NCBI GenBank assembly: GCA_036785375.1
Contig: JAWMAR010000512.1
Coordinates: 682,001 to 746,000 of the forward strand
Origin: Leucoraja ocellata
Taxonomy: Eukaryota
Reading direction: 5' to 3'
DNA length: 64,000 nucleotides
Numbering within the stretch: the first letter of the stretch is position 1; each line of letters begins with the position of its first letter. Position numbers and translations under genes: made by a program. The notes under the pieces were generated by a model that had not been told where the DNA came from, did no database searches, and saw only the letters and a list, made by a program, of their open reading frames with translations. Positions 4,683 to 61,900 of the stretch are shown here, piece after piece.

Positions 4683-4758
4683 CATCAAGAGTCAAGAGTG
4701 GTTAATAATCATATGCGCAGCGAATCGAATAATACAATTCTTCCTCGCTGCAGCTTTA

Positions 4759-5600: not shown

Positions 5601-6639
5601 TATTGACGACTTACTTTGTTAAATTGATGGGAAAAATATTATCGCAGAAGTCCTAGCGTGATATGAGGTGCTATTCCATCTAAAAATTAGATTTGCTCAA
5701 AATCTAACATGATATAAATTCGAATAATCTGAACTTTTCATAAATTTCAGAAAGCAGAGTTTAAATTGCAGCTTTTGATTTGTCTTGGCGTTTTCAATTC
5801 ACATTGCACAAGGATTGGAATTTACCCAAACTAAGCAAACCTTAGATTGTGCGACACTTGATTGAACTAAATAAATCAGCATCATCTTGCTTCTCAGACG
5901 CAAAAATGTGCTCATCTATCCAAGCAGATGTTCAGATGTTTACCTCATGAAACAGAAGCCATTGATTTATAATCCCAGAATACCAAAATATCCAAAGCAA
6001 AAGCCAGGGAGCTACGGATTCTTCAATGGAAAAACAGTCTGATAATTAAATACGTATGGCATACAAATCCAGAGCATTAGGTGGAAACTATGATCTTCAA
6101 TTTTTCTATAGGTATTATGCCCAGTAATAATTTCTAGGATAAATTTCAGACTTGTATAAATAACCATTATAAACTCTTTACTCTGGAGTAGAAATTAATT
6201 ATCTCCTGCATACGTGTATTGTGATCACTTTACAGACATTATATTGCAACAGTTTGACAGTCCACATCACTGTAGCTCAATTTTCCATTACAAGAGCAGA
6301 AGATCAAACCTAATTTTTTGTAAACAAGATAAATCTGAATTATTATATGGCATCCGAAATTACAAAATAACTAAAATAATCCATTAGTGAGTAAATCAAT
6401 GACCCATCTGGAAGTTGAACTTGTCATTTTAGAGTCAAAGATGGTTAACATAGAACTACAATGAACGGGGTGGTTGCAAAGGTGCATGTTTCCATGCTGT
6501 ATCTCTAAACCAATCTCAGTGGGTAATTTGTGGAGTTAAGGTTTCCCCTTAACTGCACTCTTGCCATGCTCAATTCCATTCATTGGCACACCTTTCCCCA
6601 TCTCTGCCACATACCTTGTCATCTGAGGATGCTGCACAT

Positions 6640-7380
6640 CTCAAGATGTGAGGTGTTGCATTTTAGGAAGTCTAACATGGGCAGGACCTATACAATGAAT
6701 GACAGGGCTCAGGGGAGTGTTATAGAGCAGAGGAATCTAGTAGTGCAAGTATGGTGCCTTGAAAGTCGAGTCGCGGGTAGATAAGGTGGTCAAGAAAGCT
6801 TTTGGCACATTGGCCTTCATCAGTCAGGGTATTGAGTATAGAAGTTGAAGGTCATGTTACAGTTGTATAAAATGTTGGTAAGGCCACATTTAGAGTATTG
6901 TGTTCAGTACTGGGCACCATGTTGTAGGAAATATGTCGTCACTGGAAAGGGTACAGAGAAGATTTACGAGGATGTTGCCAGGACTAGAGGGTCTGAGCTA
7001 CAGTATAGGGAGAGGTTGAGTAGGCTATGACTCTATTCCTTGGAGTGCAGCAGTTTGAGGGGTGATCTTATAAAGTTGCATACAACCATGAGAGGAATAG
7101 ATCGGGTAGATGCACAGAGTCTCTTGCCCATAGTGGGTGAATCGATGACCAGAGGATAAAGGTTTGTGAAGGGGAAAAGATTGAAAATAAATCTGAGGGG
7201 GTAACTTTTTCACACAAAGAGTGGCGGGTACATGGAACAAGCTGCAAGATGAGATAGTTGAGGCAGGGGCTATCCCAATGTTTAAGAACAGTTAGACAGG
7301 TACATGGATAGGACAGGTTTGAAAGGATAGGGCCAAATACAGGCAGGTGGGACTAGTGTAGCTGGGGCAAGTTGGACCAT
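6640..7380 (+). mobile_element. CR1 LINE 3' fragment (RT C-terminus)
   Basis: RCEVLHFRKSNMGRTYTMN; [23 protein letters not shown]. Confidence 0.93.
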
Positions 7381-7554
7381 GGAAGCTCCAATCTCACTCC
7401 TGACTAAATGATTGGACTGTTGACCAGTTGACCATAGCCCCCACCACTCAATGACTTCCTATTCACTTTCTCCCCCCCCCCCCCCCCCCCCCCCCAGTGG
7501 TCCAAACTCTCACCACTCGCTGTGAAGCCCCAATCCTCTGTTATACAAAAAAAA

Positions 7555-7760
7555 AGGCACAAAATGCTGGAGTAACTCAGAAGGTCAGACAGAATCTCTG
7601 GAGAACATGGCTAGGTGACCACTCGGATTGGGATTCTTCTTTGGACATCCCAACCCATAATGTCACCCATCCATGTTCTCCAAAGAACCTAACCTGCTGA
7701 GGTACTCCAGCACCTTGTGTGTTTTTGTCATAAACCAGTGATCTGCAGTCCCTTGTATCT
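7555..7760. mobile_element. Degraded inverted pair of Penelope-like termini
   Basis: CACAAAATGCTGGAGTAACTCAG on the left and TACTCCAGCACCTTGTGT on the right, in inverted orientation. Confidence 0.7.
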
Positions 7761-11880: not shown

Positions 11881-11900
11881 TCATTTCAATCATCCCTATT

Positions 11901-11954
11901 GGGGTGGGAGATTGCAACCTTCACGTGATCCGCCCTGGTTGGACAAATGCAATT
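11901..11954 (+). ncRNA. Minimal HDV/CPEB3-like self-cleaving ribozyme (P4-less), copy 1
   Basis: P1 GGGGUGG/CCGCCCU (G1-U wobble), P2 GAUUGCA/UGCAAUU, P3 ACC/GAU (one mismatch), L3 UUCACGU, J4/2 CAAA. Confidence 0.72.
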
Positions 11955-12043
11955 ATCCCGGCGTGCACAATCAAATAAGATCAAATAGAATAATTTGTCC
12001 TACAACTTTAGGCTGTGCATGCTATGAGCAAGAAGAAGAAGAA
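11901..12043 (+). mobile_element. Short retroposon with HDV-like ribozyme head and Vingi-like (GAA)n tail, copy 1
   Basis: 9-bp TSD AATCATCCC (11888-11896 and 12042-12050). 3' end TGTGCATGCTATGAGCAAGAAGAAGAAGAA. Second copy at 28796. Confidence 0.8.
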
Positions 12044-12309
12044 TCATCCCCATCACTTACCTGTGAGCAATTCTGCATCAATTGGACTGTTACTCTAAAT
12101 TAAAATGCACCACAATGTCTTCATAAACATATCAAATTTACAAATACAGCTCTAACTTTGCAAATGGTGCAAGACAAAATGTCAACCATGGGGGATGTTC
12201 CATTTACATGTAACATGTTCTCTGTTCCATAAACTGACATTCCATGTAATCGCTCCACTGTTGAAACTTGAAACATGTTTCTTTCCTCACTTTTATGGTT
12301 TATTTTAAT

Positions 12310-22823: not shown

Positions 22824-23032
22824 GTATAGGAAAGAACTACAAAGGCTGGTATAAACCAAAGATAGACACAAAAAGCTGGAGTAACTCAACGGGACAGGCA
22901 GCACGTCTGGGGAGAAGGAATGGGTGATGGTTCGGATCTGAAGAAGAGTCTCGACTTGAAACGTCACCCATTCCTTCTCTCCAGGGTGCTGCCTGTCCCA
23001 CTGAGTTGCTCCAGCTTTTTGTGTCTATCTTC
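22824..23032. mobile_element. Inverted pair of Penelope-like termini inserted in a CR1 fragment
   Basis: Arms GATAGACACAAAAAGCTGGAG and CTCCAGCTTTTTGTGTCTATC. Hammerhead core at 22938-22965. Confidence 0.88.
22938..22965 (+). ncRNA. Minimal hammerhead ribozyme core
   Basis: CUGAAGA-A-GAGUC(UC)GACUU-GAAAC-GUC. Stem II keeps pairing despite changes (G-C to A-U, and G-U). Confidence 0.65.
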
Positions 23033-28795: not shown

Positions 28796-28849
28796 GGGGT
28801 GGAAGATTGCAACCTTCAAGTGGTCCGCTCTGTTTCGACGAATTCAATC
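28796..28849 (+). ncRNA. Minimal HDV/CPEB3-like ribozyme, copy 2
   Basis: P1 GGGGUGG/CCGCUCU, P2 GAUUGCA/UUCAAUC (one mismatch), P3 ACC/GGU, L3 UUCAAGU, then GU-UUCGA, J4/2 CGAA. Confidence 0.7.
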
Positions 28850-28923
28850 AACCCGGCGGGCACAATCAAATAAGATTAAATAGAACAAGTTATCCCAAGG
28901 TGCAAGCCATATGCAAGAAGAAG
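28796..28923 (+). mobile_element. Short retroposon with HDV-like ribozyme head, copy 2
   Basis: Aligns to 11901-12043: CACAATCAAATAAGAT.AAATAGAA middle and GCCATATGCAAGAAGAAG end. Confidence 0.8.
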
Positions 28924-32020: not shown

Positions 32021-32224
32021 TGGAGAAACTCAGCGGGTGAGGCAGCATCTATGGAGAGAAGGAATAGGCAATGTTTCGGGTCAAGACCCTTCTTTCTGAA
32101 GAAGGGTCTTGACCCGAAACGTCGCCTATTCCTTCTCTCCATAGATGCTGCCTCACCCACTGAGTTACTCCAGCATTTTTGTCTACCTTCGATTTTTCCA
32201 GCATCTGCAGTTTTTTCTTAAACA
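32021..32224. mobile_element. Inverted pair of Penelope-like termini, with hammerhead core at 32096-32123
   Basis: CTGAAGAAGGGTCTTGACCCGAAACGTC on + and an inverted arm at 32021-32093. Confidence 0.88.
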
Positions 32225-32388: not shown

Positions 32389-32729
32389 ATCTCTTGTTAA
32401 ATTATTTTGTACCTGTTAGTATAGCACCATTCCTATATTTTCTTATGGTATTTTCTACAATGCTGAGAATTATATCCTGCACTCTGTATCTTCCCCTTTG
32501 CTCCACCTACTGTACTTGTGTTTGACGTGTTTGTATTTATGTACAGCATATGTGATCTGTTTGGATAGCATGCAAAACAAAGCTTTCACTGTTCCGCAGT
32601 ACACGTGACAATAATAAACCTAAACCTAAAATGCAATACTTATAACTTTTACTTCACGCCTTTCCACCACAGCAGAATGCTTGACCATATTATTCTGAAG
32701 GGTTGAAACAGATGTTGTGTTTAAAACAA

Positions 32730-32901
32730 AAAGACACAGAGTGCTGGAGTAACCCAGAGGGTCAAACAGCATCTCTGGAGAACATGGATAGTAACGTTTT
32801 AGGTTGGGACCCTTCTGCAGACTACAAGACACAAGATGTCATCTATCCATGTTCTCCAGGGATGCTTCTTGATCTGTTGAGTTACTCCAGCACTTTGTGT
32901 C
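32730..32901. mobile_element. Older inverted pair of Penelope-like termini
   Basis: GACACAGAGTGCTGGAGTAAC and GTTACTCCAGCACTTTGTGTC. Confidence 0.8.
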
Positions 32902-33882
32902 GTATTCTGAAGAATATTCATTTTGCAAATCAGAAATATATTTTTACCTTTCGCTTCATATCCTGTCATTTGTGAGTTGATGAAGCGACTATAGATTGGA
33001 TATCCATTTTTAAAATGGGATCAAAACGCTGCAGTTCACACTTTGAGACCAATTATGAGCTGTGAAGCCTTTCACTAAATCGAAAAAATATGTCTATACT
33101 CAGCCAATTGTCTACAGTATTTATTAAGCGTGATGATATAGGAATTGTGCTGACCTGCATGTGTGCACCATAAATGCAAGAAGGGAATGATGCACCAGGG
33201 CATTGTGAATTGTTTTAGAGGAATCTTTTGTAATGAACATTGTATGCTGGGAACAAAGTGTGTGTAAAGAATAACAGTGTAATCTTCTCCTCGTTAAATA
33301 GGTCAGAGATCTTTTACCTAGAGGCTAGACTGAATCATTGAAGACACTGCAGATTGTGCATAGCATACATTTAGAGCGTACAAAAGTGTTGCTGGCATCA
33401 ACTGCATCATCTCACCAGGACACATTAAAGGTAGCTGGCTCATCTAGCTCTTGAATGTTTTATGCCTTTAAAGCCACTGCCGGTCCTGAGAAAATCCAAT
33501 GATTTATTTTCAGTTGTCCAATTTGGCTGCAATGCGCACAAAATGTTAATATTTATTTTCTCTGCAGAGTGGATATTTACATGCAATATTAATAACAAAA
33601 ATCTTTTATATCTTCCTATTCCCTTTGTTTTTTTCTCAGGCAGCTTTTGCCTCTGAAATGTCTTGGGGGGTCTCGTAGTTGCGGTGAGTGTCTGCAAATG
33701 TTTCTAAAACATTCCAAACAGTTTGGTGAAAATTAGAATTCCCATCCATCCATTTTGAAGGAACATTACATTTCAGGGGAGGTACAAGCAGTTTGGGCTC
33801 CCTGGATGGGAATTGTTACTGAGTGCGATAGAAGGGGAATGAGTGATGAAACTGTCAAAATATCCAGTGAAGTGAAGTGAGT

Positions 33883-51547: not shown

Positions 51548-51780
51548 TCAAGAAGGAACTGCAGATGCTGGAAAATCGAAGGTACACAAAAATACTGGAG
51601 AAATTCAGCGGGTGCAGCAGCATCTATGGAGCGAAGGAAATAGGTAACGTTTCGGGTCGAAACCCTTCTTCAGATAAACTGGTGATAAACTTCTGAAGAA
51701 GGGTTTCGAAACGTTATCTATTTCCTTCGCTCCATAGATGCTGCTGCACCCGCTGAGTTTCTCCAGCATTTTTGTGTACC
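51548..51780. mobile_element. Inverted pair of Penelope-like termini with TSD
   Basis: Direct repeat ACCCAYTTTTCTTTGT at 51532-51547 and 51778-51793. Minus-strand hammerhead 51646-51673 has GGGU-UUCG-ACCC as stem II. Confidence 0.9.
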
Positions 51781-58900: not shown

Positions 58901-61900
58901 TTTAATGGGTAGCCTGCTGACCCATCCAGCACGTGTGCAGTACAAATCCGCATCTCCTCCTTTAACCGGTGAAGTGACTGGGGAGGGAACCGGGGAAATG
59001 ACCGGGGTCCCTCTGGGTGGAGGTGGTGAAATATGCGAGCTAGGCACTGAACGCCATGGGTAGGCTGCGGGGGACACAGTCTGTGATAGTGTAGCAGCTG
59101 GCCCGGTAGTGGGAGGTTATACAAAATGCAAAACTTCTGGATGCGGAGTCGCAGGACGTGGTTTCTTCACTGGAAGGAGATGTTGATGATTGCGTCTGTA
59201 AATGGCTCTGTCCACGTTAACCAGGTAGGACCACGGTTGTTTGGCAGGGCTGTGGATGTGACCCAGATGGCCATCGCCCTTGTTGGTCTGGAGGTGAACC
59301 ACCTGTCTACTGGAGAGAGGTTTAAGTGGCTTACTGGATTTGTCGAAAAACCGTCTTTGTGTATCACGTTTGAATTGTAGTTGTTTCTGGACTGCGAGTG
59401 GAGAATGGACCTGTGGCTGCAAAAGCTGCTGGGGGACAGGCAGGGCAGCACGGGTTTGGCGAGACATCAGTTGTTGGCCTGGGGAACCCAGCATGGGATC
59501 CCTAGCAATGTTCCTTAAATTGAGCAGGTCCAGGTAGACATTAGATTTAGCAAGGTAGGAACGCTCCATTAGTTATTTTGCTCTTTGGATGGCTCGTTCA
59601 GCGAGTCCGTTGGACTGCGGAAACTCAGGGCTGCTGGTGATATGATATATCCCATCGTTGAGCAAAGCTTTTGAAAAGCTGTCTGGTGAACTGACTGCCA
59701 TTGTTGGATAGAACATGTGCAGGGGAACCGTGCACGGAGAAATGGCGTTGCAACTTCTAGATAACCACTTCAGATGTGATGGTTTGGAGTAGATCAGTGT
59801 CAAACCAGCCCAAATAAGAGTCGACAAGAACCAGATAGTGTTCCCATGCCATTCGAATATGTCGGTGGCTACCGTGGACCACAGTAGAGGAGGAACCGGG
59901 TGTGGCAGTAAGGGCTGCTTCTGCTGATGTGGCGTCAGGCTTTTGTAGATGGTGCAGATCTCAGTTTTGTCACGTATGTACTTGGTCATACCAGGCCAGT
60001 AAAACATGTTTTGTGCCCGTTGTAAGGTGGCCTCCATGCCGGGGTGCCCCCCTGTGGATGGTGTGGAAGTACTTGTCCTGGAGGACAGCTGGGACAACTG
60101 CCTTGTGGCCCTTGACTATAATCCCATCCTGTAACACCAGTTCATCGTGAACCAGGCAGTATGGGAGGATCGCGAATGGGGTGCTGTGTTGTTTATTCGG
60201 CCAGCCCCTCGGATGACTGCAGACAGTAATTGTAAAGTCACATCAGCAGCCGTGTGCTCTGCCAGGTTGCTTAGGCAATCATTAGGGACATATGATAACT
60301 TCATTACTGAGAACTGGTCCTGTTCAGAGAGTTGTTGTTCGCTGGTTTTGCGTGGGGCCCTTAATAGCGTGTCAGCTATGTGCATGTCCTTGCCTTTTTT
60401 ATAGGCAATGTTGAAATCAAAACACTGCAGCTGCATCATCATCTGTTGCAGGTAAGCCGGAGCAGTGTGAATGGGTTTATTCAAGATGTTGACCAGCAGC
60501 TGGTGGTCTGTTTCATAATCACAGACTTCCCAAATATAAAGTCTTTGAATCTCGTGCAGGCGAAAACCACTGCAAGTAATTATTTTTCAATCTGTGCGTA
60601 ACCTTATTCAGTATCAGTTAGTGTGCGAGAAGCATATGAAACAGGTTTGCAGTCGCCATCGGCAGTGGTCTGCAGGCAAGCAGCACCAAGTCCGTACTGG
60701 GACTCATTACATGTGAGCATTATGGGTAACTCCAAAGCAAAATAGATGAGGGTAGATGCGCTGGGCAGCTACAACTTGAGGCTATCGAAAGCTCTTTGGT
60801 GCTGCGGATACCAGGACCATGCAATGTCTTTGTGTGTCAGTTCCCTCAGGGGGGCAGATATATTGCTAAGGTTGGGAATAAATTTCCCCAGGTATTTGAC
60901 TATTCCAAGGAACCTTTGTAGAGTCGTAACGTCAGTAGGTGCTGGCACTTCATTGATAGCAGCTGTCTTCGATGGGTCTAGTCTGAGAACATCACTCATG
61001 AAAACATGTCCACATGACCCGAATCTTGCACTTCAGGGGATTGAGTTTGAGCTGGATGTCTTTGGCATGGTCCAGCACTTTCTTCAGATTAGCGTCATGC
61101 TCAGCCAAGTCACGCCCATAAATGATAATGTCATCAAAAATAATAACGCATGGATACCTCGAAAACATTTGTTCCATCGTGCGCTGGAAAACTTCGCTGG
61201 TGCCGAATGTAGTAAGGTTGGACGAGTCTGGCCCAAGCAGAATCGTCCAAAACAAACTTTTGGCATCCAGAATGGAGAACACTGATGCGTTACCTATTTG
61301 AGTGGCAACTTCCTCTACCGTTCGCATAGGGTAGTGTGGGCATTTGATAACTGTGTTGAGATCCCTGGGGTTTATGCAGATACGGATTTCCTCCTTGTTT
61401 TTTTCGTCACAACCACCATGGTGGAAACCCAGTCAGATGGGTCAGTAACTTCAGCAATGACACCCAGGGAGACCATCCGCTTAAGTTAATTGTGTACGCT
61501 GTCACGCATGGCATACGGAACACGACGTGGTGTTCGAACCACAGGAGTAATGTTGGGATCAACGGCGATGTTGTACTTGAGGGGCAGCTTGCCCAGCTCA
61601 CCGTTAAATAGTTCTCTGTATTGACAGAGTGGGGCCCTCAGCGGGAAAGTGTTGATGGACAGCGTGGCTAAAGTATTCTAGGCCTAGATCGTGGCATGTG
61701 TTGATACCAAGCAGAGTTTCAGAATCCCCCTTAACGATATAAAACTTTAGGGTATGAAGCTGCGAGTCTATGATGTAGTTTAAATTAGTTTGTACAAGTG
61801 GGTGTAGAACATCATCCCCGTAGGCCCGAAGCATGGCTGAGGCCTTTTCAATTTACGTGTGTTTAAAAACTCATATAACGAGATAACGTTGCATTTTGTG

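Follow-up and report, generated by a model that had tools for sequence, protein, structure and literature searches.

Positions 11901 to 12041 of the window, the stretch of 64,000 nucleotides of Leucoraja ocellata DNA that was analysed, hold a single decayed copy of a dispersed family of short retroelements. This copy begins with a 54-nt segment that can be folded as an HDV-type ribozyme, ends in an (AAG)n tail and is flanked by a target-site duplication (TSD). A second copy starts at 28796, and both copies were present where a sequence-only reading of the window had placed them. The following parts were distinguished:

11888..11896 (+): left TSD, 9 bp, an exact match to 12042-12050
11897..11900 (+): four extra bases separating the left TSD from G1, probably untemplated
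11901..11954 (+): HDV-type ribozyme fold of 54 nt that lacks P4, with cleavage predicted 5' of G11901
11901-11907/11930-11936 (+): P1
11908-11909 (+): J1/2
11910-11916/11948-11954 (+): P2
11917-11919/11927-11929 (+): P3, broken at 11928 in this copy
11920-11926 (+): L3
C11922-G11937 (+): P1.1, one pair
11939-11943 (+): loop in place of P4
11944-11947 (+): J4/2
11944 (+): predicted catalytic cytosine, the equivalent of HDV C75 by alignment to the HDV J4/2 (C44 of the element)
11901..11977 (+): segment in common with the 5' UTR of an autonomous LINE, first ~77 nt (BLAST against full-length LINE copies L163-L165 and L173)
11960..11969 (+): 5' arm of a 5'-3' helix, its partner being the 3' UTR arm at 12014-12023
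11978..11994 (+): linker peculiar to the short element, in part a local duplication; one of its 19-mers has 9703 exact matches
11995..12029 (+): segment in common with the LINE 3' end (final codons, the TAG stop at 12009-12011 and the 3' UTR; 30 LINE 3' ends)
12030..12041 (+): (AAG)4 tail, also on the LINE
12042..12050 (+): right TSD
28796..28923 (+): second, more decayed copy, with P2 broken at 28844, L3 altered at 28819 and a 3' deletion

A single stem pair is thus broken in each of the two window copies (at 11928, in P3, and at 28844, in P2, respectively). The sequence-only reading had drawn the element to 12043 and had given it a 9-bp TSD. Both the (AAG)n tail and the duplication were recovered, but the element ends at 12041, and the left repeat does not adjoin G1, from which it is separated by 11897-11900. 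These four bases exceed the extra bases of all 48 TSD-bearing copies sampled from the family. The copy at 28796 is followed directly by another repeat, and no TSD was seen in its flanks.

A Pfam scan of 11 and 126 stop-free stretches (of 250 listed) revealed no host exon in the window. A decayed LTR-retroelement-like region with RT and integrase zinc-binding fragments was observed at 59100-61450 (-). Long hairpin-forming inverted repeats with sub-threshold Rfam miRNA matches, probably MITE-like, were located at 7565-7712, 22860-23029, 32030-32162, 32718-32919 and 51602-51759.

The short element is an internally deleted Vingi-like LINE

A first-look search yielded 1403 candidates for the family, 40 of which were scored. 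Two probes were then compared, the 19-mer from the linker (9703 exact matches) and a pattern of 30 places that covers the head's 3' half (4891 matches). The 19-mer occurred in 17 of 30 head-selected copies and the 30-mer in 28 of 79 linker-selected copies, corresponding to ~17,000 and ~14,000 copies, respectively. A frequency of one full copy per 200 kb of random stretches agrees with this range, and the family was set at ~15,000 dispersed copies in a genome of 3.44 Gb. Copy ends were studied in the first 100 linker matches of the list, less 11 that belong to one tandem cluster; of the remaining 89, 79 were distinct. Since 10 of the 89 places were flank duplicates, distinct insertions are somewhat fewer than the copy estimate. 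A cluster of copies at G000:C1:19.26-19.43 Mb, with a period of ~2 kb and copies on both strands, is probably a tandemly amplified unit.

In this sample, whose selection was blind to the head, 60 of the 79 copies started at position 1, 8 at position 2 and 11 further in, in agreement with the earlier claim that the element begins at G1 or within a few nt of it. A TSD was found for 48 of the 60 position-1 copies, as compared with 1 of 180 in a swapped-flank control. The TSDs measured 8-13 bp, mostly 11-12 letters when overlap with the tail was counted. They abutted or overlapped G1 in 36 of the 48 copies, while one extra base was present in 10 (5 T, 4 G, 1 A) and two in 2; extra G was not in excess (4 of 48). 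None of the 48 carried a 5' transduction, that is, upstream sequence of a source locus. Divergence from the majority was 2.7% at non-CpG positions (162/5989) and 12% at CpG sites, in a sample that leans young. Inserted copies look to be decaying neutrally and the family looks inactive, or nearly so, at present. The family, with the same variable sites, also occurs in assembled contigs of organisms A, B, C and E.

The lead to the partner LINE was a 5'-truncated piece in a random stretch, which had only its last 33 nt in common with the short element and an ORF end upstream of them. Its family comprises 940 candidates, with the same 3' end and (AAG)n as the short element, whose first ~77 nt recur in full-length LINE copies with TSDs (L163/L165, L164/L173). 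Among 30 copies, at least three other deletion joints of independent origin were found (L181, L182/L202, L184), all with the full head. These results showed that the short element is a SIDE, or bipartite LINE, which consists of the first ~77 nt and the last ~40 nt of an internally deleted Vingi-like LINE, followed by (AAG)n. Because both ends are common to the two elements, the ribozyme head was inherited from the LINE. The sequence-only reading had correctly described a ~140-bp non-autonomous element without an ORF, as only LINE 5' and 3' ends and a TSD were found, and its proposal to look for an autonomous Vingi with the same ends led to a Vingi-like LINE of ~3 kb with APE and RT and without RNase H. 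Its picture of a ribozyme fused to a foreign Vingi-like tail was replaced by that of the LINE's own 5' end after internal deletion.

The partner LINE, ~3 kb in length, encodes an APE domain followed by an RT domain and a C-terminal Cys/His motif. Its protein has 175 relatives, of which the 120 listed are mostly ~1000 aa long. The nearest intact relative (P0002) has 1019 aa and is 70% identical over the queried piece. RNase H was found neither in the LINE's own fragments, nor in P0002, nor in any of the 120 relatives listed; it was present in 4 of 4 more distant single-ORF elements tested. Single-ORF status of the LINE rests on P0002 and on read-through, the copies of its own genome being broken: none of 59 own-genome matches to P0002 had a stop-free span across the protein, a count that is a floor. 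In an RT tree, the LINE fell inside a clade without RNase H (98/99), adjoined by RNase H-bearing elements (80/53, weak). That clade also contains the Anolis protein P0084, which may be Vingi-1_Acar.

The LINE conforms to the definition of Vingi given in PMC13708176; the tree holds no named Vingi or Ingi reference sequence, and the LINE is called Vingi-like here. A search of solved structures with the LINE returned only a group II intron RT, and viral contigs gave only two distant RT matches and one chance 18-mer. Many LINE copies are 5'-inverted (L093, L094, L112, L127, L174, L175, L177; also L266 and L306), and their inner junction lies no more than ~15 nt from G1, which is what twin priming to the RNA 5' end predicts.

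A predicted HDV-type ribozyme without P4

In the family majority, the head consists of a P1 of 7 bp with a G1-U wobble, a J1/2 of 2 nt, a P2 of 7 bp, a P3 of 3 bp, an L3 of 7 nt, a P1.1 of one pair (C22-G37), a 5-nt loop in place of P4 and a J4/2 of the form C-N-A-A. This P4-less parse, already proposed from the sequence, held for the family majority, in which all 18 pairs form; pairs and core were intact in 35 of the 79 sampled copies. A loose HDV descriptor was matched by none of 50,000 shuffled heads. The core residues of HDV ribozymes were present (G1 wobble, U...C-G in L3, and C-N-R-A in J4/2 with the predicted catalytic C), as in the HDV-like core described in PMC6326823. At the position of P4, LINE and short element alike have 5 nt between the GU and J4/2.

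When an intact copy was compared with 4227 Rfam families, the only matches were to HDV_ribozyme (21.7 bits, E 0.14) and HDV-F-prausnitzii (14.4 bits). Both scores are below the respective cut-offs of 50 and 44 bits, in an alignment that skipped the P4 expected by the models. The intact copy did not match the CPEB3 model (RF00622, cut-off 35 bits), and a scan of the whole 64-kb window, whose copies are decayed, gave no HDV-type match. The proposed likeness to the mammalian CPEB3 ribozyme was therefore upheld for loop and core residues only: L3, CGAA and the GU that follows P1 are identical to the Rfam CPEB3 consensus line, but overall 27 of 49 positions are alike by our own count.

C44 was a C in 71 of the 76 copies covering it and a T in 5, which is the level of CpG decay. 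Changes in the head among three sublineages defined by the element body were confined to J1/2 (G/A), the base after C44 and one P1 partner. The base after C44 was G in 32 of 53 copies of one sublineage and U in 19 of 21 and 5 of 5 copies of the others, the Rfam HDV consensus being CuAA. In P1, the partner of U5 was A or G, so that U-A became U-G and pairing was kept. Two further analyses were abandoned. An asymmetry of CpG decay at C44, taken as a sign of selection when counted by eye (CA 11 : TG 2 among the 100 matches that head the list of 4891), was lost in an independent sample (11 CA : 5 TG, p 0.21), in which inserted copies show no selection on C44, and a Fisher test of sublineage changes at paired versus other positions was set aside because its counts had been picked post hoc.

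The nested-only folding energy of the head was ordinary (z 0.2-0.3). In the nested-only minimum-energy fold of the whole element, G2-U5 pair with 56-59 and P1 is displaced. A further possible misfold, of G37-U38 with A43-C44 round UUCG, would trap the predicted catalytic C; similar mispairing was designed out in PMC6326823. Element positions 55-61 could take the place of P1 by pairing with the G run at the 5' end, and the same seven bases follow P2 in the L278/L306 family despite its different stems. A short J1/2 lowered activity in one ribozyme, which was nearly dead with 0-1 nt (PMC4908430); the J1/2 of the present head has 2 nt, and the CPEB3 ribozyme can also be drawn with 2 nt. Theta ribozymes of 56 nt, which have no P4, are reported to be active (PMC10879173).

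Related LINEs were surveyed in 80 metagenome loci. Among 19 upstream regions inspected, several of those without the fold being truncated, 6 had it at the 5' end (L278, L317, L298, L296, L272 and L238). The L278 head, of which L306 is a cleaner copy, scored 30.5 bits in Rfam, and the L272 head, in its cleaner copy L266, scored 20 bits with the CPEB3 model (E 0.0018). On comparison with L306/L278, 3 of 7 P1 pairs and 3 of 7 P2 pairs were changed on both sides at constant helix lengths; on comparison with L266/L298/L317, P2 and P3 were changed (in L266, the first P3 pair). All heads of the metagenome relatives retain P4, and P4 was thus lost independently in the lineage of the short element. MAFFT did not align heads with P4 to heads without it. 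The loose descriptor, applied to 366 kb of metagenome loci, gave 5 matches with C at the catalytic position (2 of them spurious) and 1 each with T, A and G. The descriptor scripts missed the L238 head and found no head in L245. By eye, L238:~420-560, next to an intact Vingi-like ORF of 1039 aa, was seen to hold an HDV-like head whose L3 carries a long inserted helix.

Within the genome of the window, two loci scored above the cut-off of 35 bits with the Mammalian CPEB3 ribozyme model: L382:4474-4558 (-), in G000:C1880, with 56.2 bits, and L387:251-335 (-), in G000:C28, with 64.2 bits. They belong to a second, younger Vingi-like LINE family of ~3.1 kb (copies L391-L403; 21 exact matches to a 23-mer), whose copies begin at G1 and have different flanks. 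Its RT groups (100) with Anolis P0084 (50% identical) and with fish and echinoderm proteins, apart from the family of the short element. A third family (L379:3949-4033 (-) and L389:195-279 (-)) has a decayed head with CPEB3 scores of 18.5 and 16.8 bits, and has P3 and the bases after P1 in common with CPEB3. A fourth (L385:219-287 (-)) has a weak decayed head (HDV model, 26 bits, E 0.72). No head was found in the 5' regions of L386, L388 and L390, which are apparently truncated. In this genome, each of the four Vingi-like families that could be followed to the 5' end thus had the fold, intact or decayed, and the comparison of sequences shows it to be conserved through compensatory changes in at least five related Vingi-like families.

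By eye, 34 of the first 40 positions of L387 and 11 of its last 13 are those of the CPEB3 consensus, a total of 45 of 53 outside P4. Six of the eight differences constitute three compensatory pairs, one creates a wobble and one lies in J1/2, all structure-neutral. The short element also has the L3, one-pair P1.1, GU after P1 and CGAA of the CPEB3 ribozyme (RF00622), and the same helix lengths when P2 is drawn with 7 pairs; it differs in its stems and in its lack of P4, and the close match is to L382/L387. The CPEB3 ribozyme is described as single-copy, intronic and 'not found outside of mammals' (PMC8233481). Judged by these sequences, the L382/L387 family may represent the type of donor from which it came, although, with heads surveyed in Vingi-like elements only, we give a CPEB3-Vingi link about even odds.

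Downstream of the fold, 11960-11969 can pair with 12014-12023 over 10 bp in the family majority, and the two UTRs of the LINE over 8 bp (L164/L100). In L296, of unrelated sequence, ~1510-1520 can likewise pair with ~4715-4725. In a longest-helix test chosen after the fact, 7, 1 and 0 of 2000 shuffles did as well. The duplex energy of whole UTRs was significant in 1 of 4 elements (L296, 3/300; own LINE, 68/300; L317, 87/300; L238, 168/300).

Proposed role of the head and alternative explanations

Taken together, the analysis makes it likely that the head self-cleaves at G1 and so frees a unit-length RNA from a longer transcript, which the LINE protein copies. A source copy would be transcribed within a longer Pol II RNA, by host read-through or from an imprecise start of its own. 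The head would then fold and cleave 5' of G1, with C44 acting as the general acid, to give a unit-length RNA with a 5'-OH that retains the whole ribozyme. The APE-RT protein of the LINE would bind the 3' end of this RNA, possibly aided by the 5' UTR-3' UTR helix, and copy it by target-primed reverse transcription. With so short an RNA, insertions would be mostly full length, which would account for ~15,000 copies as against tens to hundreds of LINE 5' ends. For catalysis and read-through, this proposal draws on L1Tc/NARTc, which cleave at +1 (PMC3383444), and on the 56-nt theta ribozymes (PMC10879173).

The 77-nt head of L1Tc (Pr77) is also a promoter that starts transcription at +1 (PMC3383444), and a G1 start is therefore no proof of cleavage. 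The head of the short element could accordingly descend from an active ribozyme but itself be dead or very slow, with G1 set by an internal Pol II promoter in its 77 nt and the fold serving to protect the end or bind protein, an explanation that we consider unlikely. It is in keeping with Pr77, with the length of the 5' segment common to LINE and short element (also ~77 nt) and with the possible misfolds. Self-cleavage itself is called into question by some trypanosome SIDER heads that were inactive despite adequate predicted folds (PMC4035085). The promoter explanation could also draw on copies with G1 starts in which an 11-nt deletion through L3, P3 and P1 has destroyed the fold. This deletion has 27 exact matches (~0.5%; 27 versus 4891), and many of its carriers, which include L047, L052-L057, L060, L062, L063 and L076-L078, have a TSD and start at G1. 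It occurs, however, on at least three sublineage backgrounds, and one locus (L047/L058) is present both with and without it, a pattern that fits recurrent events better than a ribozyme-dead source gene; reverse-transcriptase skipping across the pseudoknot, or gene conversion, is possibly the cause. The persistence of C44 and of the J4/2 pattern throughout the three sublineages and the LINE, beside a base that does vary, and the absence of an excess of extra G at the 5' junctions argue against the promoter explanation as well. The same head can, moreover, be an internal Pol II promoter and an active ribozyme at once.

A Pol III SINE whose internal boxes have degenerated, and in which the fold is a passenger from the LINE, is a far less probable identity for the short element. 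An A-like box at +5 (3 mismatches) and a B-like box at +51 (1 mismatch) do have tRNA-like spacing, and the short element contains no T4 run. Yet these matches are at chance level and miss invariant positions, the same bases occur in the 3-kb LINE with T4 runs just downstream, and no tRNA-like gene was found in 4 of 4 loci scanned; the absence of tRNA A and B boxes noted in the sequence-only reading was in this respect confirmed. A chance parse of a G+C-rich repeat start, to which the unremarkable nested-only energy and the lack of an Rfam match above cut-off in this family might point, is already refuted by the comparative data on sequences, namely none of 50,000 shuffles fitting, a fold that begins at the first base of the element, compensatory changes in at least five related families and a sister family above an Rfam ribozyme cut-off.

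Self-cleavage at G1, as favoured here, would place the family in an architecture, the ribozyme-headed short retroelement, that is already known from trypanosomes and R2. NARTc/L1Tc and RIME/ingi (Pr77 / L1TcRz) are, like the short element, non-coding internal-deletion derivatives of a LINE, of which they retain the first ~77 nt, where an HDV-like ribozyme cuts at +1, together with ~30 nt from the 3' end (PMC3383444, PMC4035085), and R2 SIDEs follow the same scheme (PMC3414825). In contrast to NARTc/L1Tc, the partner LINE has no RNase H (Vingi, not Ingi), the predicted ribozyme lacks P4 and has a one-pair P1.1, and the element has an (AAG)n tail, a length of ~140 nt and ~15,000 copies in an animal genome. 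Vingi-1_EE and the bipartite LINEs (Kojima 2018) arose, likewise, by internal deletion from a LINE that has APE and RT in a single ORF and lacks RNase H (PMC5786205, PMC13708176). [quoted passage not shown] Classical SINEs have a tRNA, 5S or 7SL head, whereas the present head is a LINE 5' UTR in which canonical A and B boxes are absent.

The closest counterparts of the head in size and core are the minimal HDV-like or theta ribozymes (drz-Mtgn-1; gut phages), which also lack P4 and have ~55 nt. Their origin was at first unexplained; they were later placed in gut phages, many beside tRNA genes, and the same study found no minimal form in the eukaryote genomes searched there (human, mouse, protists) (PMC10879173). 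Unlike these phage and metagenomic forms, the present head is the 5' end of a retrotransposon and lost P4 independently. A literature search, from whose scope Kojima 2011, Ruminski 2011, Webb 2009, patents, Repbase and Dfam were excluded, found no ribozyme on Vingi, no eukaryotic P4-less form and no named donor family for CPEB3.

The minimal HDV-like fold, for which the literature examined gave no eukaryotic setting, gains one here, with a clear proposed job, an ancestry, in that P4 was lost within a P4-bearing clade, and thousands of natural variants. RNA-based gene writing is being developed with Vingi-1, its native 5' UTR included (PMC13708176), and a head predicted to cut itself and a helix between the two UTRs are of consequence for the behaviour of such templates. 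For the CPEB3 ribozyme, the L382/L387 family offers an outgroup beyond mammals and a testable donor. We give an even chance to the broader proposition that an HDV-type 5' ribozyme with a one-pair P1.1 is general to Vingi, that the CPEB3 ribozyme is a domesticated Vingi 5' end which entered the CPEB3 intron before the marsupial-placental split, and that the 54-nt form is active in a family of ~15,000 copies, 6,000-7,500 of them foldable. If this is true, foldable copies in sense orientation would cut host pre-mRNAs.
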